Shown: positions 3,580 to 57,215 of the stretch, piece by piece
How the letters are laid out: every line of letters begins with the position of its first letter
Numbering within the stretch: position 1 is the first letter of the stretch
Assembly (NCBI GenBank): GCA_963753435.1
Contig: CAVWCF010000001.1
Location: forward strand, 1,248,001 to 1,312,000
Reading direction: 5' to 3'
DNA from: an uncultured Actinomycetota bacterium
Lineage (GTDB): Bacteria > Actinomycetota > Actinomycetes > CAVWCF01
DNA: 64,000 nt
The notes under the pieces: model-generated
Told to the model about the DNA's origin: nothing
Database searches by the model: none
Seen by the model: the letters and a program-made list of their open reading frames with translations, nothing else
Translations under genes and position numbers: made by a program

Positions 3580-4674
3580 TCAGACGTCGGTGGGGATCAT
3601 TGACGTGCCGGACTTCATCCGGTCGCGGAAGGAACCGGCCGGGTATTCGCGGTCCTTCAGCTTCTCCATGAACTCCCGCAACGTGCGGGTGCCGTACGGC
3701 GGCGCCAAGTGGCTGACGACGGACCAATACTTGGCCGCTTCCAGATAGAACGCGACGTTCTTCATCCGCGGGTACACCGTGCCGACTCGGCGCATGCGCG
3801 CGATCGTCTTGTCCCAGGACTCCAGGGTCTGCACTTTGAACTGCGGCTCAGTCCCGAGAACGTCGAACATCATCTCGCCGGCGCTGCGCAGCGTCACGAC
3901 GTTGTCCTCGTTCCACGGCCCGCCGACCGGCAGGATGCGTCCGGCCGCGTCGTCGTCGCACAGCGCGTTGACGATGAACTCAGCCAGGTCTTCGCGCGCG
4001 ATCGGGTTGGTGAGGGAGTACTCACCGTGGTCGAAGATGCGGTACGGCTCGCCGTTCTTAACCGAGCCGAAGTTCACCGACAGGTACGGGTAGTAGGCGG
4101 TCGGCCGCACGATCGTGTACGGGATGCGGCCGAAGTGACCGCCGATGAGTTCCCCCTCCACCTGGAGTTTGTAGACCTGCGGCAACAACTCCGGGCGGTA
4201 GACGCCGTAGTCGGAGATGTGCACGAAACGGCGTGCGCCATGAGCCGCCGCGGCGCGGATCCCGTTGGTCACCGCCACGTAGTCGACCTGGCGACACTCC
4301 TCCGGATCGTTCGGCCGCCGCGAGCTCAACAATGAGATCGCACTGCGGATCGGGTACTGCGCGAACGCCGCCTCGATGTCCTCGGCACGAGTTGGGTCAC
4401 CGACAACGACTGGTACGTCCGGCATCCCGTCCACCGACTGCGTCGACCGCGCCAGGACCACCGGCGTGAAGCCGCGGTCCAGCAGCTCGGGCACCAGGGC
4501 CCGGCCGATGTAGCCACTGCCGCCCAGGACGAGCACATGCTCGCCATCGCCGCTGCCGCGACGCCCGGTCGCGTAGGTCTGCTTGACGGGTGAGTCACCG
4601 AAGACCTCGGCGCGCAGTTCGTCCACGCGGCGCTTGGCGGCGACCGGGTCCACCTGGCTGATGGTGCTGAACAT
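3580..4674 (-). CDS. Atypical SDR/NAD(P)H-binding oxidoreductase, divinyl-chlorophyllide 8-vinyl reductase (BciA/DVR)-like
   Basis: GGSGYIG Rossmann motif. VDY, YTIVRPTAYY, VKNGEPY..F..GE, NPI..EDLA.FI, RILPVGGP, KYW and PPYGTRTLREF blocks follow the remembered BciA/DVR layout along the full length. GAGGAGG RBS. Confidence 0.75.
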   Translation of the reverse strand: MFSTISQVDPVAAKRRVDELRAEVFGDSPVKQTYATGRRGSGDGEHVLVLGGSGYIGRALVPELLDRGFTPVVLARSTQSVDGMPDVPVVVGDPTRAEDIEAAFAQYPIRSAISLLSSRRPNDPEECRQVDYVAVTNGIRAAAAHGARRFVHISDYGVYRPELLPQVYKLQVEGELIGGHFGRIPYTIVRPTAYYPYLSVNFGSVKNGEPYRIFDHGEYSLTNPIAREDLAEFIVNALCDDDAAGRILPVGGPWNEDNVVTLRSAGEMMFDVLGTEPQFKVQTLESWDKTIARMRRVGTVYPRMKNVAFYLEAAKYWSVVSHLAPPYGTRTLREFMEKLKDREYPAGSFRDRMKSGTSMIPTDV

Positions 4675-4757
4675 GCAAACGCCTCCTCGGGTGGTGATAT
4701 CGAAGCGGCCCCACTTTGGCGGCGACAGGGACGTTGGACCCGCCGGTCCGTCCGTCG

Positions 4758-6312: not shown

Positions 6313-7116
6313 TCAAGCGCTACTGAATCGCGGGTCCTCAGCCAGCGGTGGCACTGTTCGCGGAGTCGGCGGCAGGCGCAGCAACCGCGGCCGGATCGCG
6401 AACGCCAGCGCGACAACCACGACGACCAGGCTCAGGGTCATCGGCCACGACCACCGGGAGTCCGTCGCTGCACCGTTGATCGCCAGGACGATGGCCACGA
6501 CCGACAATGCGTTCACCAACGTGGTGAAGCCGTGCATCACCTGCTGCTTGGTCCGCAGCAGCACATCCAGGAAATAGATGGTCAAGAAGACCGTCAACAG
6601 CGTAAGCACGATCACCGGGTCGCGGGTGGCGGCGTACAGGGCGCCTACCGACGCCAGCCCGAGGATCGTTTGCACCGCCTCCTTGGGGCCACCGGTCAGG
6701 TAGACCACCGCCAACAGGGCCACCACCGCGCCGACGGCCCACCACATCCAGCCGGTGTCGCCGTAGACGGCCAGCACATTGAGCCCCAGCGCGAGGCCGA
6801 CCAGCGACGTGAACAGCCAGTCCAGCACGCTTGGCGGCACCCCGATCAGATACCACCGGTCAAGAGTGTTCTGCGCGCTCTCGCAGACGCTGGCGACGAT
6901 CATGACCACCGCTGATGCGTAGAGGAGCGCGGGTCGCTCGAAGATCTGGTCCACGAACGCGCGTTGGTCGGCTACGGCCCAGACCAGCAGCAGCGGCGAC
7001 AGAATCGTGAGCACATGAGCGAGCAACACCCAAACAGCTGTGGGGACCGGCAGGTCGATCTCGGACCGCACCCGCTGCCACGGCCGCGCCGCTACCTGTT
7101 GCACCGCTTGCGCCAC
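6313..7116 (-). CDS. Polytopic membrane protein of unknown function
   Basis: About 7-8 hydrophobic segments with polar motifs AHVLT, CESAQNTLDRWY and QVMHGFTT. Start estimated at GTG 7116, just after the AKR stop. Confidence 0.75.
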   Translation of the reverse strand: MAQAVQQVAARPWQRVRSEIDLPVPTAVWVLLAHVLTILSPLLLVWAVADQRAFVDQIFERPALLYASAVVMIVASVCESAQNTLDRWYLIGVPPSVLDWLFTSLVGLALGLNVLAVYGDTGWMWWAVGAVVALLAVVYLTGGPKEAVQTILGLASVGALYAATRDPVIVLTLLTVFLTIYFLDVLLRTKQQVMHGFTTLVNALSVVAIVLAINGAATDSRWSWPMTLSLVVVVVALAFAIRPRLLRLPPTPRTVPPLAEDPRFSSA

Positions 7117-8172: not shown

Positions 8173-9813
8173 TCAGCCGGTAGGCGCCTGAACCATCTCG
8201 GCCGTTCGCTCGAACACCTCACGCCGCAGTGCTTCCCCCTGCGCAAGTTGGCTGGGCCGGGTGGGGCGGCGGTCCTTCCAGTACCAACCGGTGACACCGG
8301 CCACCTCGGGTGATGCGGCCAGGTAGATGGCCGTCTGCGCGGCTTCGGTTGGGGTGCGCAGGAGCGGCCGCGTCACGGCCACGAACCAGGCGAAGGGGCC
8401 GGTGACCTCCGCGTAGATGTTCGTCGGGACCAGAGCGCCGGGGGCCACGATGTTCACGGTCACTGCGGCGTCCGCCCACCGCTGGGCCAGTTCCAGCGCC
8501 GCTGCGGTCACGAGCAGTTTGGACTGGTTGTACGCCGCGAATCCGGCGTTGAGATCCACCTGCTTTTCCGGCCATCCCGACGGGCCGTTGAGGTCCTCGA
8601 AGTCCGGGCTGCTGGCCTGGCGATGTGCATCGGAGGACACGAAGAGGACGCGGGCAGACGAGTCCCGCAGGCGTTCGGCGAGCAACGCCGTCAGCAAGAA
8701 GCCGCCCAGATGGTTGGTCGCCAGCGTGCTCTCGTAACCGTGGGGTGTCTCTTCGTAGCGGGCACGGAACACGCCGGCGTTGTTGATGAGTACGTCGATG
8801 CGGGGGCAGGTTGCCTGCAGTTGCTCAGCTGCCGTGCGCACCTGTTCGGGCAACGACAGGTCACACACCAACAACTGGCCGCCGGTCTCCTCAGCGACCG
8901 ACTGACCGTTCACCGCGTCCCGGTCCACGATCACCACCTGCGCCCCGAGGCCGGCCAGGGCCCGAGCCGTTTCGGCCCCGATGCCGTTGGCGCCGCCAGT
9001 GATAACGATCGTTCGGCCGGTCAGGTCGCCGAGCGGAGCGGGTTCGCCCAGCGCCGGTCCGTCCGGATCGACCGGGTGCGGCCACCGGAAGGTGGGGAAC
9101 GGCATCGCCATCGTCGACAGCAGCAGGGCCAGCGCCTGCAGTGCCACGTACAGGCCCAGGTTCTCGTAAGCGGTCACCCAGATCCCCGCGACGACCAGGT
9201 TCGGAGTGTGCGCGAGCAGGACCTTGCGGCTGTTCCACTCGGCGATGTTGTGCTCCGGGGATACGTGGATGTCCCAGTACAGGGCATGCCACAGCCCGAC
9301 GAACGCGCTCAGCACGATCACCAACGTCGCCAGCGTCAGCGCATCAGCCAGGCCACCGGTTCCCAGCCAAGCCTCATACCCGCGCTTGGCCACCAGCCAA
9401 ACGGATCCGAACAGCAACCCCTCGCTGACACCCCAGGCCAGGCCGAAGACCAACGTGTCCGGCCAGACGATCCGTCGACCGTGCGGGCGCGTGCCGGCGG
9501 GCCAGATGAAGCCATACCCGACCAGGACAACGGCCAGGGCGGCCAAGCCCGTGACCCACCACAGCCAGTTGCTGGTCTGGCCGGGCAGAACCAATGGATT
9601 CGCGGCGATGGTCGACACAGTGCCGCTGGCGAACGCGATCGCCCAGGCAGCAGCGAAGTAGGTGCAGGCACGCAACCACGCGGCCCTGGTGTCGTAGCGC
9701 CACACTTCCCGGTCGCGCAGGTAGCGGCGCAGCAGCACGGCAAAGGCGAGCGCGATCAGGGCGGCGATGCCGGCAGCGGGCCAGTTGGCCGCTGCGATGG
9801 TGAAGTCGCTCAT
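8173..9813 (-). CDS. Fusion of an N-terminal multi-TM domain and a C-terminal classical SDR (retinol dehydrogenase/POR-like subfamily)
   Basis: About 240 aa hydrophobic N-terminus, then TGGANGIG, NNAG, TNHLG.FLLT, VSS.AH and YNQSK (YxxxK). Confidence 0.85.
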   Translation of the reverse strand: MSDFTIAAANWPAAGIAALIALAFAVLLRRYLRDREVWRYDTRAAWLRACTYFAAAWAIAFASGTVSTIAANPLVLPGQTSNWLWWVTGLAALAVVLVGYGFIWPAGTRPHGRRIVWPDTLVFGLAWGVSEGLLFGSVWLVAKRGYEAWLGTGGLADALTLATLVIVLSAFVGLWHALYWDIHVSPEHNIAEWNSRKVLLAHTPNLVVAGIWVTAYENLGLYVALQALALLLSTMAMPFPTFRWPHPVDPDGPALGEPAPLGDLTGRTIVITGGANGIGAETARALAGLGAQVVIVDRDAVNGQSVAEETGGQLLVCDLSLPEQVRTAAEQLQATCPRIDVLINNAGVFRARYEETPHGYESTLATNHLGGFLLTALLAERLRDSSARVLFVSSDAHRQASSPDFEDLNGPSGWPEKQVDLNAGFAAYNQSKLLVTAAALELAQRWADAAVTVNIVAPGALVPTNIYAEVTGPFAWFVAVTRPLLRTPTEAAQTAIYLAASPEVAGVTGWYWKDRRPTRPSQLAQGEALRREVFERTAEMVQAPTG

Positions 9814-11505
9814 CCGGTCGGCTCACCATCTTGGGCGCGGAATGCGGAGACCACAGTCGGCAGCGTAGGGAAGATCATGTCGGGGCCGACCTCGTCGAGA
9901 AAACCCGCGCGTTGTAGATCTGCGCGCAGTTCGGTGGTGGCCCGAGCCAGGCCGAACCGAATACCTCGTTCGCCCAAGGTCGAGCGCAAAGTCCGCAGGG
10001 CGGTAATCGCGGTGGAGTCCATCTCCGGCATGGCCTCAGCATTCAGGACGAACCACCGCACCGGCTCGATTTCGAGGTCGATGGCTGTCAGCGCCCGGCG
10101 GAGGAAGTTCTCGGAGTTAGCGAAGAACAGCGGCGCGTCATAGCGGTAGATGACCAGTCCCGGGACTGTCTGCACACCGCGGTAGTCCTCCACGTCATGC
10201 ATTCCGGCCAGCCCCGGCACGAAGCCGAGGACCGCGTCGTGCGGTCGGGCGATTCGTCGCAGCATCGCCAGCAATGACAGCCCGACCGCTACGAGCACTC
10301 CCGGAAGCACGCCGACGGCCAGCACGCCGACCAACGCGGTCAGCGCCAACCAGAACTCGACGCGGCTGTACGCAGCCAACGCGCGGAATGCGGTCCACGT
10401 CGATCAGTCGCAGTGCCGCGTAGATGACCAAGGCGCCCAGCGCGGCCTGTGGGAACTCCGCCAGCAGCCCCCGGCCCAGCAGCAGGATCAGTAGCACGGC
10501 AACAGCAGCCACGATGGAGTGCAGTTGGGTCCGACTGCCGGCGGCATCCCCGATCGCGGTTCGGCTGCCACTGCTGGAGACCGGGAAGCCGGAGAACGCT
10601 CCCGCACCGATGTTGGCCGATCCGAGCGCAAGCAACTCAGTGTTGGCGTCGAGACGTTCACCGCGGCGGGCGGCAAACGCGCGCGCGGTAAGCACGTTGT
10701 CGGTGTATCCGACTATCAAGACGCCCACGGCGGCCGGGAGCAGGTCGAACAGGTCCGCTGCCCCCACCCCAGGCCACCCGGGTACCGGCAACCCCGCGTC
10801 GATCGGGCCAACGACCGCAAGGCCACGGTCGGCCAGACCCAACACCGCAGACAAGGCGGTGGCGAACAGAACGGCCACGAGCGGAGTCGGCAACCAGGGG
10901 CTGGACTCTCGGGCCAGCAGCAGGAACGCCAGCACCCCAGCGGCCACCACGGCAGTGAGCGGGTCCACCTGACCCAGGTTCGCCGCGAACGATCGCAACT
11001 GCTCGAGGGTGCTGTCGCCGGTCACCGCAACGCCGGAGACCCGACTCAGCTGACTGACGATCATCAGCACCGCGACCCCGGCGAGGTAGCCGACCAGCAC
11101 CGGCCGGCTCAGCAGGTCGGCGATGAATCCGAGGCGCAGCAACCAGGCCACCAGGCAAAGGGCTCCGGTAACGATGGCCAGAGCCGCCGCCAGCACCGCG
11201 TATCGACCCGGATCACCGCCGGCCAGTGGGCCGATCGCACCAGCGGTCAGGAGCGCGGTCGTCGATTCCGGACCCACTGACAGCTGTCGGGAAGTCCCCA
11301 GGAATGCGTAGATGACCAGCGAGGGCAGGATCGCCCAGAGGCCGGTCACTGGTGGCAGACCGGCGATCGCCGCATATGCCATCACCTGCGGCACCAGGTA
11401 CGCGGTGACGGTCAAGCCGGCGGCCACATCCGACCGCAGCCAGTCGCGCTGATAGTGCCGAAGCACGAACCAGCCCGCCACCGGAACGGTGGCGGGCTGG
11501 TTCAT
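9810..11505 (-). pseudogene. SulP (SLC26) anion permease with STAS domain, split by a +1 frameshift near 10395 (pseudogene or sequencing error)
   Basis: DVAAGLTV..LVPQ.MAYA, GTSRQLSVGP and SGSRTA in one frame, and YRYDAPLFFAN (STAS) in another. Removing one G from GTGGACC restores ..IDVTAFRALAAYSRVEF.. Confidence 0.85.
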
Positions 11506-54193: not shown

Positions 54194-54586
54194 TCAATCG
54201 CTCGCGACTTCGCGCAGCATCTTTCCTAGCTGGGCATAGCGCTGCGCGCCGAGGCGCTCGGCGTAGCGCTCCTCGACCCGGGCCACGGCCTCCTCGAACC
54301 GAGCGTTCAACTCATTCCCACGCCCCGACCTTCGGACCAGCCAGGCCCGCCCGTCTGCGGGATCGGGCGTCCGCTTGATCAAACCCTCAGCTTCCAGCCC
54401 TTCGATCGCTTCGGCCATCGCCTGCTTGCTGATGCCGGCGCGATCAGCAAGGTCCTGCTGCCGGGCACCGGCAGCAGGGATCAGTTGGAGCAACCGGATC
54501 CGCCGCAGCCCCAGATGCGCCAGTTCCTCGGGTAGGACAGCGCCAAGCTCAACAGCGGTACGCGCCTGAACAGCCTCAAGAAGCAC
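54194..54586 (-). CDS. MarR family transcriptional regulator (start uncertain; the reading frame extends to about 54650)
   Basis: [31 protein letters not shown] winged-helix signature. Confidence 0.9.
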
Positions 54587-54629
54587 CAGCAGATGGTCTG
54601 GCGATGCAGGGTCGATGTCGAACTCCCAG

Positions 54630-54670
54630 TGGTCAATCTTCTTGACTAAAATGGTCAGGTAGGTTGACGA
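54630..54670. promoter_or_regulatory. Tandem palindromic operators GTCAA-N5-TTGAC and GTCAG-N5-TTGAC between the divergent marR and SDR-RCCR genes
   Basis: Perfect inverted repeat at 54632-54646 and a one-mismatch copy at 54654-54668, flanking TAAAAT (54647-54652). Confidence 0.75.
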
Positions 54671-54700
54671 TACTCCGGGATCGCGAAGAAGGGGAACGGC

Positions 54701-56344
54701 ATGCGGGTACTTATCGTCGGTTGTGGGCTGGTCGGCAAGGAGTTGGCTCAGCAACTCCGGGCGGATGGCCACCACGTCATCGGCACCACCACGACTCCCG
54801 GCAAGGTCACCGCGCTGCAGCAGGTGTGCGACGACGTTGCCGTGCTCACCGGCGCCGACACCGCGGCCGTGCACGCCGCCGCCAAGGACGTCGACGCGAT
54901 CGTGGTAACCGCCGGTCCCGCCGCCGCCCAGGCCATGACGGTCGAGCAACGGCAGAAGACCTACCGCCGTGTCCTTGTCGACACCGCCGAGTCGGTGTCG
55001 AGTGTGCCCGGCGACCCCTACCTCGTGATGCTGTCATCCCTGTCGGTCTACGGGGACGCGGCCAACCACCTGGACGTCATCGACGAGTCCAGCCCCCTGT
55101 CAGACAGCGAGGACCCAAGCCCGGCCATGTTCCAAGAGGCGGAGCGCACCTACCGCAACGCCGCCGCGGATCGGCTGGCGATCTTCCGCTGCGCCGACAT
55201 CACCGGTGGCGAGGATCCGCCGATCATGGACAAGCTGCGCATGGCCCATCAGGTCTTGGGTGGTTCGGTGCCGTTCCACGACGAGGCGCTCTTCTACCGC
55301 GTCCACATGCTCGATGTGGTCGGAGCCGTGAAGTACGCCCTCGACCGCCGCTTCACCGGCACCTACAACCTCACCCACGCCGAGGTGCCGCCGCCCATGC
55401 AGCCGTACTTCGATGCCCTGTGCGCCCTGGACGGCCTGCCGCCGCTGCAGTACCGCAACGAGTTGACGGCACCTACCAAGCCGGTATCCGTGGACGCCCT
55501 GCTGGCCACTGGCTTCACCCTCGCCCACACGCAGGTTGAGGAGATGCCGGCCGCGGACGCGGTCGCACCGCCGAGCGCACTCACCGGCATCGACCGGACG
55601 GGCCGAGAGATGGTCACGGCCGTTCTCGATCGACTCATCTCGGAACTGGAACTCACTGAGGAAACATCTGCGGACGGCCAGCCCGTGCTGCCGATCACCG
55701 CAGTCGGTGGCGTCAAGGACGGGCAGCGAATCGGCGAGTTCCGGGTGTTCTCCCGCCCGGGTGGTCCCCGCGTCGTCTACAGCGCGCTCTCAATCGACGA
55801 CTTCGGCATGGACACCCACCAGGTCTACGCATTCACCGGCGCGGACAGTGCGGTACCGCACCTGTTCGTCGACACCGCGATCTCGCCCAACACCGATGGC
55901 ACGTTCCACTTCGGCCTGGACCTGGTTGCGCGGGTCGATCTGGCCGCTTCCTTCGACTACACGCAGGCCGTGTACGGAGAACTCACCGACGTCCGGGGCG
56001 ACGCCCTAGCCACACCCGGCGTCCTGCCGGTCCCGTCGCTCGGCCCGTTGCAGTGGTCGCTGCGCTCACCCTGGATGCTCGCAGCCATCGCCGCGCCCGG
56101 TGACCTGAAAGCGCTCGCTCCCGCGGTGGATGCCTACGTTGACCAGTGGCTGAACCTGGTCAAGTCGGGGCTGCCGGAGGCCGCGGCCGCCGACGCGCAG
56201 TGGCAGAACGTCGCTGAGCGCGACCGACGCAATCGCGCCGCAATCTTCTCCCCCGCGGCCAACCCGGTCTGGTTCCTGCTGGACCGGCTGGTGGGCGCCG
56301 AGCAGTCGGCCGCCATGCGGGCGCTGCTTACCGCGCAGGACTGA
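54701..56344 (+). CDS. Fusion of an atypical NAD(P)-binding SDR/epimerase domain and a red chlorophyll catabolite reductase (RCCR)/ferredoxin-dependent bilin reductase-like domain
   Basis: N-terminus GCGLVG..GTTT, SS.SVYG, FRCADITG. C-terminus AFT..DSAVPH..VD, F.LDL..RVDL....DY...VY, SPW, Y..QWL and ERD..NR parallels remembered RCCR blocks. Confidence 0.72.
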   Translation: MRVLIVGCGLVGKELAQQLRADGHHVIGTTTTPGKVTALQQVCDDVAVLTGADTAAVHAAAKDVDAIVVTAGPAAAQAMTVEQRQKTYRRVLVDTAESVSSVPGDPYLVMLSSLSVYGDAANHLDVIDESSPLSDSEDPSPAMFQEAERTYRNAAADRLAIFRCADITGGEDPPIMDKLRMAHQVLGGSVPFHDEALFYRVHMLDVVGAVKYALDRRFTGTYNLTHAEVPPPMQPYFDALCALDGLPPLQYRNELTAPTKPVSVDALLATGFTLAHTQVEEMPAADAVAPPSALTGIDRTGREMVTAVLDRLISELELTEETSADGQPVLPITAVGGVKDGQRIGEFRVFSRPGGPRVVYSALSIDDFGMDTHQVYAFTGADSAVPHLFVDTAISPNTDGTFHFGLDLVARVDLAASFDYTQAVYGELTDVRGDALATPGVLPVPSLGPLQWSLRSPWMLAAIAAPGDLKALAPAVDAYVDQWLNLVKSGLPEAAAADAQWQNVAERDRRNRAAIFSPAANPVWFLLDRLVGAEQSAAMRALLTAQD

Positions 56345-56345
56345 A

Positions 56346-57215
56346 GTGCGGCGCGGACCCGCTGACGGAGACTGGGTCGCAAGCCCACTACGGGACAACT
56401 GGTACCAGTCCAGTTCCTATTGGGCCTCGACGTTCGGCCTCGTCACCACCGTGGACGAGGACGGCCAGACCAACGTTGCTCCGTACCAACTGTCGTTCCC
56501 GTTCGAAGTGATCGGCGGGCGCGCGGTGCTGTTGATATCGCGCCCGGACTCAAACACGGCGCGCAACCTGCGCCGTACCGGCGTGTGCGCCATCAACTAC
56601 GTGGAGGCCAAGCGCAAGGAGCTCAAGCGCATCGTCGCTCTCGGCTTCCCTGGTCAGACAACGGCGGAGAAGAGCCCAGACAACCCGTACTCACTGACCG
56701 GCAGCCCAACTCCCGGTCGGTCGCCCGACGGCCGGCGGTTCCCCCATCTGCTCCAAGAGGCGTTCCAGGTATACGAGTGCACGTGGGACACCGAACAGCC
56801 GCTGCACGCCGACCAACCGGCGCCGGCCTACTTCGTGCTGCGGCTGGACGGGATCCTGCTTCGGGAGCGGTGGGCCAAGAACCTGGAGGACGGGGGCCGG
56901 GCAATGCCCCGGCTGCCAATCACGTACGGGTTCCGCGGGGGCACCAGATTCTGGTTCGCCAAGGTGCGCAAGCCGTTCTGGATCGACACCCCCACCGATC
57001 GTGGGCCCAAAGAGGAGGCGATCCTCTACGAGGCCAACCGAATCGACCCGGACGTCCGGTTCACCCGGGAGGCGTGCCAGCAGTTGACGGGAGTGCCGCG
57101 ACCGTTTCTGAAGATGGCGCTGAAAGGCATCGTCAAGAAGGCCAAGGAACGTGGGCTGACCGAGGTCGACGTCGACTTCGTCCGCGAAGTCGACGAGCAG
57201 CGCCGGGCCGGCTGA
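56346..57215 (+). CDS. Flavin-reductase-like (split barrel) domain fused to a C-terminal PCP_red (BchB/ChlB C-terminal)-like three-helix domain
   Basis: LVTTVDE.G.TNVAPY, SNTA.NL..TG...INY and YEC. C-terminus FT.EA...L..VP.PFLK.AL..I...A.E.G..EV..D.V. Confidence 0.72.
   Translation: MRRGPADGDWVASPLRDNWYQSSSYWASTFGLVTTVDEDGQTNVAPYQLSFPFEVIGGRAVLLISRPDSNTARNLRRTGVCAINYVEAKRKELKRIVALGFPGQTTAEKSPDNPYSLTGSPTPGRSPDGRRFPHLLQEAFQVYECTWDTEQPLHADQPAPAYFVLRLDGILLRERWAKNLEDGGRAMPRLPITYGFRGGTRFWFAKVRKPFWIDTPTDRGPKEEAILYEANRIDPDVRFTREACQQLTGVPRPFLKMALKGIVKKAKERGLTEVDVDFVREVDEQRRAG

Follow-up and report, generated by a model that had tools for sequence, protein, structure and literature searches.

BciA (DVR), represented by AT5G18660 and by the BciA proteins of Chlorobaculum tepidum and Rhodobacter sphaeroides, is an NADPH-dependent 8-vinyl reductase described from phototrophs (PMC3931815, PMC13297055, PMC3595025). 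BciA requires chelated Mg, and one source states that data assigning binding or catalysis to particular BciA residues do not exist (PMC3931815). The plant PAO/RCCR route of chlorophyll breakdown, as described in a recent preprint, has no vinyl-reduction step (bioRxiv 10.64898/2026.03.19.712979). That preprint predicts, for more than 400 genomes with Nocardioidaceae as one of the main families, an RCCR-type pathway for chlorophyll a, shows its early steps in Shewanella acanthi, and reports that RCCR and SGR (Mg-dechelatase) homologues are mutually exclusive. Its main text does not mention vinyl, BciA, operon, gene cluster, cupin or maleimide; its supplements may list the genomes and genes discussed below. 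Another study, in its accessible part, used RCCRs and related sequences only as an outgroup (PMC10151467). Dedicated vinyl reduction of linear tetrapyrroles in a bacterial catabolic route is described for BilV of gut bacteria, a functional analogue. BilV belongs to the flavin-dependent Old Yellow Enzymes and has bilirubin as its substrate, whereas the protein described here is an SDR associated with a route that includes oxygenases (bioRxiv 10.64898/2026.06.10.731317).

The window analysed here is a 64,000-nucleotide stretch of the genome of an uncultured actinomycetote. On its minus strand it carries an intact gene for an atypical SDR whose nearest characterized family, in trees and in Atlas, is BciA/DVR. 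The gene and its landmarks are as follows.

3580..4674, minus strand: BciA-sister atypical SDR, 364 aa, an intact ORF
4682..4688, minus strand: Shine-Dalgarno sequence GAGGAGG, 7 nt ahead of the ATG, read from the letters
4728..4742, minus strand: 15-bp element with exactly two copies in the genome, this one and one ahead of the orthologue of the pathway FAD monooxygenase
Protein residues, N-terminal half: arm 1-44; glycine motif G51-G57 (G51GSGYIG57); R76; S154-D-x-G-x-Y159 loop; Q166xxK169
Protein residues, C-terminal half: R190PT; N223PI; G251GPW254; Y316W..H322..PYG

In the window's genome the gene lies between genes for a gamma-glutamyltransferase and an NlpC/P60 protein. The former ends a same-strand run that begins with a multi-pass membrane domain fused to a classical SDR (8173-9813), continues with an aldo-keto reductase and a membrane protein, and stops 83 bp before the BciA sister. 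Beyond this run, a SulP sulfate permease is split between two overlapping frames (10195-11505 and 9810-10379), which suggests a frameshift.

Family libraries and fold comparisons place the protein among SDRs in general. Pfam gives matches to NAD_binding_10 and Epimerase, and NCBIfam gives no match near a cut-off. A BciA-type NCBIfam match at E 1e-15 is absent even for true BciA; hence, such libraries cannot decide BciA membership. The AlphaFold model (pLDDT 89) has an SDR fold, with block-mean pLDDT of 89-93 over residues 11-40 of the N-terminal extension. Foldseek matches the model to NDUFA9 at E 1e-14, sequence identity to NDUFA9 and other SDRs being 17-22%, and VIA-align scores (Z 22-26) are tied over many SDRs, NDUFA9 and sugar epimerases among them, so that the fold match is uninformative on function. 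We looked for a solved BciA structure and found none. A database search returned 118 proteins, the best 99 of which (the query aside) are 47-75% identical to the window protein and mostly about 365 aa long. Named members among these 99 belong to Nocardioides and Mumia, and many of the 99 are automatically labelled "divinyl chlorophyllide a 8-vinyl-reductase".

The sequence-only reading of this stretch had described motifs colinear with BciA/DVR, two rewritten loops and an N-terminal extension of about 40 aa, and alignment bears out all three. The window protein is 31% identical to a protein of the green sulfur bacterium Prosthecochloris, named DVR by one source, over 323 aa (E 8e-50), in colinear order through to the C-terminus, where KYW..PPYGTRTLREF aligns with the KYY..PSYG..LR.F of BciA across a 13-residue gap. 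S154DYGVYRP161 aligns with SAICVQKP, and YYPYLSVN with FFKS[LI]AGQ; the CKPIS and ESML motifs are likewise rewritten in the family. SDxGxYxP and RPTxYxP are present in all of the best 99 of the 118 homologues and SA[IFY]C in none, whereas SAICVQ[KR]P is kept in 120/120 Chlorobi-type BciA proteins. The rewritten loops are a trait of the whole family. The extension is family-wide too: the glycine motif starts at a median residue 50 in the family as against 19 in Chlorobi BciA, giving about 30 extra residues, or about 40 when measured against the shortest BciA.

Family and BciA share the columns G51/G54/G57, R76, R119, D131, S154, P161, Q166 and K169, as well as RPT, PI, GGP and P.xG. Among these, G51, G54, G57, R76, D131, S154, Q166, K169 and RPT belong to the cofactor side, R76 being an invariant NADP-type Arg after strand 2. 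Neither has the SDR catalytic Tyr. Both cysteines that are invariant in BciA (columns C115 and C157) are replaced in the family, which also lacks the BciA signatures SC[LM]xSR, SA[IF]C, FFKS and C[KN]PI. New invariants are D155, G157, Y159, P196, H216, N223 and W254, together with W317 and H322, which are invariant except in one frameshifted row. The loop was earlier called an active-site loop. That it is rewritten stands; "active-site" is drawn from SDR alignments, and the BciA study reports no data that would assign such roles to individual residues (PMC3931815).

Where does the family belong? Our main tree has 59 rows, comprising family members, BciA (from Chlorobi, from proteobacteria and from a profile search of 50% clusters) and other atypical SDRs found in genomes; most of the BciA rows from the profile search are unnamed and were assigned to BciA by motif. 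The outgroup of 11 rows consists of unnamed atypical-SDR or epimerase-like proteins, with no annotated NDUFA9 or Ycf39 among them. BciA forms one clade of 28 rows (support 99/96) with the window's family outside it, and the family forms a separate clade of 13 rows (100/99). In a third set the SAIC loop is retained, together with the NPI, the GGPxxxxN and the short C-terminus of the window's family. All three join against the outgroup at 96/90, and a 28-row analysis groups the family with BciA against other SDRs at 100/99. AU tests (28 of the 59 rows, LG+G4) rejected trees in which the family joins the Chlorobi and eukaryote-type BciA rows (p-AU 0.0009) and trees that unite the family with BciA without the SAIC group (p-AU 0.006). 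Rooting the supergroup on the family's branch, which makes the family earliest, passed the test (p 0.07), so that more than one branching order of the family, the SAIC group and BciA fits the data.

On this sequence evidence, the family is a sister lineage of BciA, neither a BciA nor a generic SDR. A phylogeny had been proposed as a check on the sequence-only reading, and its outcome sets the family with BciA and apart from the other atypical SDRs; NDUFA9, NmrA and other atypical or extended SDRs have the same fold, and those generic SDRs that were placed in the tree lie outside the BciA-like supergroup. The identification as a BciA/8-vinyl reductase is not supported: the family lies outside the BciA clade, both invariant cysteines are replaced, and chlorophyll a is already 8-ethyl. 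Individual proteins show further variety. One (P0262) combines the SAIC loop with the RPTAYFPY of the window's family, to which it is sister, and another (P0260) is a divergent family member of 485 aa with an SDTGVY loop and a long C-terminal tail. The SAIC-loop group in Gammaproteobacteria (L042-L045, P0107, P0241, P0262) is a second non-phototroph BciA-like lineage; ChlM is absent from 4/4 of its hosts, all of which carry RCCR-like and DUF4437 genes.

The hosts carry no sign of photosynthesis among the markers sought. Photo_RC, which covers type II reaction centres, and ChlM were found in 0/43 host genomes (39 of the family, 4 of the SAIC group), and the window's genome, 98% complete, lacks CobN/Mg-chelatase H. 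In contrast, true BciA tracks ChlM: among 13 proteobacterial genomes with a BciA match, 11 have ChlM, and all 11 intact BciA genes are in these. The two others hold one broken BciA gene and one distant outgroup match; the broken gene (G339:C6:3,396,747-3,397,464) is probably a relic of lost phototrophy. A match to Mg-chelatase ChlI at one related locus, between UPF0102 and DprA genes, was taken to be the unrelated ComM. Stray matches to chlorophyll genes in non-phototrophs have been described (PMC8262859). The family is rare, being present in 2/41 related genomes and, among 401 actinomycete genomes, in the window's genome only. The database label "8-vinyl-reductase" on its members would wrongly suggest chlorophyll synthesis in these genomes.

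The genes beside the BciA sister differ between hosts. In the 10-kb flanks of 43 loci, neighbours vary and there is no universal partner; recurrent GntR-aminotransferase, LeuB and PknG blocks look like genus synteny and were discounted. At six loci the gene adjoins some of a set comprising a DUF4437 double cupin, a membrane protein, an acyl-CoA ligase, an HMG-CoA-lyase-like protein, CaiB and an isochorismatase, and at four it lies behind a maleate-isomerase-like gene. The window's genome carries these partner genes elsewhere. The DUF4437 protein is matched in 41/45 genomes (two entries being one genome), and in the DUF4437-type regions of the window's genome RCCR-like genes stand beside an alpha/beta hydrolase and a Rieske oxygenase.

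RCCR-like genes, matched by PF06405, follow the family closely. PF06405 is present in 44/48 genomes, made up of 39/43 family hosts, 4/4 SAIC-group hosts and one genome without the BciA sister (G976), as against 0/14 controls and 0/205 other actinomycetes. Two PF06405 genes in the window's genome exceed the cut-off. In an even sample of 251 Nocardioidaceae, 8 genomes have the BciA sister, 9 have DUF4437 and the same 9 have RCCR-like genes, all 8 lying within the 9; these carriers are kin (4 of the 8 are Mumia), and the co-occurrence is no formal test. Since one Nocardioidaceae genome has RCCR-like genes without the BciA sister, the latter is accessory. Four family hosts lack RCCR-like genes (G052, G072, G075 and G077), and in two of these (G075 and G077) the family gene is on contigs of 2-3 kb. 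One RCCR-less host is a single-chromosome deltaproteobacterial record in which the family gene follows a UbiD-like fragment; by eye, this ORF (L034:9231-11083) reads as the C-terminus of a UbiD-family decarboxylase, and a vinyl-arene substrate is conceivable at this locus. The BciA sister is 20-22 kb from an RCCR-like gene in two genomes, one of them N. alcanivorans, where it lies 22 kb away at the end of the block. It is 48-49 kb away on the same contig in four more. In Mumia and N. gilvus it is more than 200 kb from the cluster or on another contig.

The RCCR-like genes belong to a block of 50-60 kb that is conserved among N. gilvus, N. alcanivorans and Mumia sp. DW29H23, and in a Pseudomonadales genome most of the genes are on one contig. 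Pooled over the blocks, some of which lack individual genes, the cluster comprises two RCCR-like genes, a third RCCR-fold paralogue, an esterase, a Rieske oxygenase, SDRs, an ABC transporter, a sortase, maleate-isomerase-like genes, amidases (nitrilase, hydantoinase-like, isochorismatase), an FAD monooxygenase, aldehyde dehydrogenases, CoA transferases, C-C lyases of the HMG-CoA-, CitE- and isocitrate-lyase families, a RipB-like hydratase and a GntR/FCD regulator. It resembles the plant PAO/RCCR and prokaryotic RCCR-type pathways in joining RCCR-like reductases to a Rieske oxygenase and alpha/beta hydrolases in heterotrophs, and differs in its three RCCR-fold paralogue groups and its long downstream catabolic arm. 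The RCCR-like profile matches plant (Arabidopsis) RCCR at E 2e-19 as against E 5e-7 for haem-type bilin reductases. Two other members weigh against a simple analogy with plants. The Rieske gene, two genes from RCCR-like 2, matches VanA_C; PF08417 (PaO) is found in 0/4 of its orthologues at E 0.1 and in 2/30 of its Atlas neighbours. The alpha/beta hydrolase whose gene separates RCCR-like 2 from the Rieske gene matches PF12740 (E 1e-7 to 6e-3) and is weakly chlorophyllase-like (PF07224 at E 1e-3, below the cut-off, in 1/4 orthologues); its best solved matches are polyester hydrolases. For the cluster SDR, considered as a possible NYC1/NOL-like enzyme, the 120 closest homologues bear generic names only.

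The window's genome has the pathway scattered across more than ten sites, and one of these is within the window. The main pieces elsewhere are at C1:1,560,000-1,586,000, C1:66,000-87,600 and C2:126,920-127,774. Related genes in the window are the following.

6313..7071, minus strand: membrane protein of no Pfam family, 32% identical to a gene in the Pseudomonadales RCCR cluster
54701..56344, plus strand: fusion of an NAD(P)-binding domain and an RCCR-fold domain, the NAD(P)-binding part being an orthologue of the gene after RCCR-like 1 in the clusters (38-54% identity)
56346..57215, plus strand: split-barrel flavin-binding protein 1 bp behind the fusion, with PNPOx_N at E 3e-5 and, at the C-terminus, PCP_red at E 0.03, below the cut-off

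By HHalign, the RCCR-fold domain of the fusion matches the RCCR-like family at 98%, and Arabidopsis RCCR takes Foldseek ranks 1-7 against its model (E about 1e-9). This gene is 50 kb from the BciA sister. This arrangement (54194-57215) could feed electrons to an RCCR-type domain without a ferredoxin. An ORF within 54194-54949, divergent from the pair, is MarR-like by eye. From its sequence, the membrane protein at 6313..7071 is a possible pathway member.

Is the BciA sister expressed together with the cluster? The palindrome GATCATATATGATC, allowing up to 5 mismatches, is present in either orientation upstream of the gene at 28/32 loci, 27 of which score at least 14 bits. We spotted it by eye in the output of motif sampling and then tested it; the sampler itself gave only coding-sequence matches. 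Its matrix has 27 matches in 180 kb of RCCR-cluster DNA from three genomes and 2 in 264 kb of control flanks, one of the latter being ahead of a maleate-isomerase-like cluster gene. All but one of the 27 cluster matches are at most 250 bp from a called gene start, including those of both RCCR-like genes, DUF4437 and the GntR/FCD regulator; two pairs of matches overlap, and one match is the N. alcanivorans BciA sister's own site, which was outside the training set. These counts are to be read with the caveats that part of the palindrome may be a leaderless -10 box and that AT-rich sites favour intergenic DNA. In the same three genomes, the sortase and several secreted proteins without Pfam families are under this palindrome, possibly for surface pigment capture.

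We propose the palindrome as a predicted operator common, in Nocardioidaceae, to the BciA sister and the RCCR-cluster operons. In the window's genome it has five weak matches, none of them before the BciA sister, and motif sampling over 26 pathway gene heads of that genome gave no clear common motif. There, the 15-bp element may weakly suggest a lineage-specific operator; it was found post hoc, and allowing up to 2 mismatches it has 18 further sites in the genome, 2 of them ahead of pathway genes. An IclR-like palindrome precedes the RCCR-like 2, CaiB and flavin-reductase operons of the window's genome.

With its co-occurrence with RCCR-like genes, its linkage to them in several genomes and the shared Nocardioidaceae palindrome, the BciA sister is very probably a member of the RCCR regulon. 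On balance, it is somewhat more likely than not an NADPH-dependent reductase of a C=C bond conjugated to a pyrrole ring, acting on a chlorophyll-derived substrate in a predicted bacterial breakdown pathway. The vinyl group remaining in chlorophyll a is that at C3, because C8 is already ethyl, and we tentatively suggest, as a choice that may well prove wrong, that this C3 vinyl is the specific target. The sequence-only reading had envisaged a repurposed enzyme acting on scavenged pigments or their breakdown products; that part gains from the link to RCCR-like genes, and the 8-vinyl reductase identity attached to it is not supported.

A plausible route would begin with removal of phytol by the esterase, opening of the ring by the Rieske oxygenase and reduction of the red catabolite by the RCCR-like enzymes. 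The BciA sister would then move hydride from NADPH, using the glycine motif, R76 and K169 and no catalytic Tyr, to the remaining vinyl. Pheophorbide, RCC, pFCC or a fragment of ring A might present the C3 vinyl as its natural target, with a methine bridge as the second candidate bond. After C3 reduction, ring A would yield the methyl-ethyl fragment that ring B also yields, and this could pass to the cluster's imide/amide hydrolases, maleate-isomerase-like enzymes, CoA transferases and C-C lyases; from general enzymology, these enzymes would fit the conversion of alkyl-pyrrolinones and maleimides to branched dicarboxylates. The rewritten loops, with two Cys lost and D155, Y159, H216, W254 and H322 new, may reflect a change of substrate, from the Mg-chelated ring that BciA requires to one that is metal-free or ring-opened. 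One source refers to bacterial reduction of the C3 vinyl in chlorophyll a (PMC12860425); there the reduction is anaerobic, in contrast to the RCCR cluster, which relies on oxygenases.

An alternative explanation, which we regard as unlikely, keeps the gene in the same regulon and changes the tetrapyrrole: the substrate would be the vinyls of haem-derived bilins, or the 8-vinyl of scavenged divinyl pigments (divinyl chlorophyll, chlorophyll c2, protochlorophyllide). RCCR and bilin reductases have one fold in common, yet by E value the cluster reductases resemble RCCR more closely, by twelve orders of magnitude. A 106-aa gene of the ABM family, which includes IsdG-type haem oxygenases, adjoins RCCR-like 1, and haem oxygenase and FecCD genes lie upstream at one locus, although that haem oxygenase has no match in the window's genome. 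This alternative also draws on the SAIC-type group, which retains the BciA loop and tracks RCCR-like genes in 4/4 hosts, and on BilV, which provides gut bacteria with a dedicated bilin vinyl reductase. Against this, the conserved core of RCCR-like 2, esterase and Rieske oxygenase is what chlorophyll breakdown needs. Less likely again is that the pathway degrades a nitrogen heterocycle that is not a tetrapyrrole, with the RCCR fold recruited to it and the SDR serving as an ene-reductase or ketoreductase. Generic catabolic families do dominate the cluster (VanA-type Rieske, hydantoinase-like, nitrilase, isochorismatase, CaiB, acyl-CoA ligase, cupins), and the nearest Rieske enzymes of solved structure have saxitoxin precursors, methylxanthines and dicamba as substrates. 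However, unrelated chlorophyll-linked families converge in one genome set, namely three RCCR-fold paralogue groups, the BciA sister and the weak PCP_red match, and the preprint reports loss of chlorophyll a by RCCR-type Shewanella, its HPLC showing early steps only.

A stand-alone, generic atypical SDR that looks like BciA and simply travels with the cluster would account for the differing neighbours among the 43 loci, for library matches to generic SDRs only, for best folds tied between NDUFA9 and sugar epimerases, and for the position between gamma-glutamyltransferase and NlpC/P60 genes in the window's genome. We consider this very improbable, since gene and cluster occur together across several actinomycete lineages and in a Pseudomonadales genome, and since in Mumia and N. 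gilvus the cluster palindrome is kept at a gene more than 200 kb away or on another contig.

The pathway idea itself is already in the preprint. A link between the BciA sister and the RCCR pathway was not found in the literature searched, mostly open-access: titles and abstract openings gave nothing on DUF4437, on RCCR with Nocardioides or on non-phototroph BciA relatives, and the accessible parts of two further papers hold nothing on the family (PMC9306834, PMC13446030).

What would the family mean for pigment turnover? About a billion tonnes of chlorophyll are turned over yearly, and the bacterial role is described as unknown (bioRxiv 10.64898/2026.03.19.712979). Sedimentary chlorins without the C3 vinyl are reported, and the passages concerned, in the accessible part of the source, name no enzyme (PMC12860425). 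In cultured Nocardioides and Mumia the family offers a soluble candidate vinyl reductase encoded by a single gene, which co-occurrence and a predicted operator tie to a defined gene cluster. The family is also relevant to where BciA came from. One study infers BciA to be a late innovation outside Terrabacteria (PMC11194577); the closest relatives of BciA found here are non-phototroph lineages linked to pigment breakdown. The boldest reading, which we think rather doubtful, is that the protein would be the first 3-vinyl reductase of chlorophyll catabolism, in a complete, co-regulated chlorophyll-mineralizing route, and that phototrophs recruited BciA from such heterotrophic relatives. If so, 3-vinyl reduction would be a step that is absent in plants, and a chlorophyll-making enzyme would have arisen from pigment-eating bacteria, with the window's lineage and the SAIC-type group as its heterotrophic relatives.
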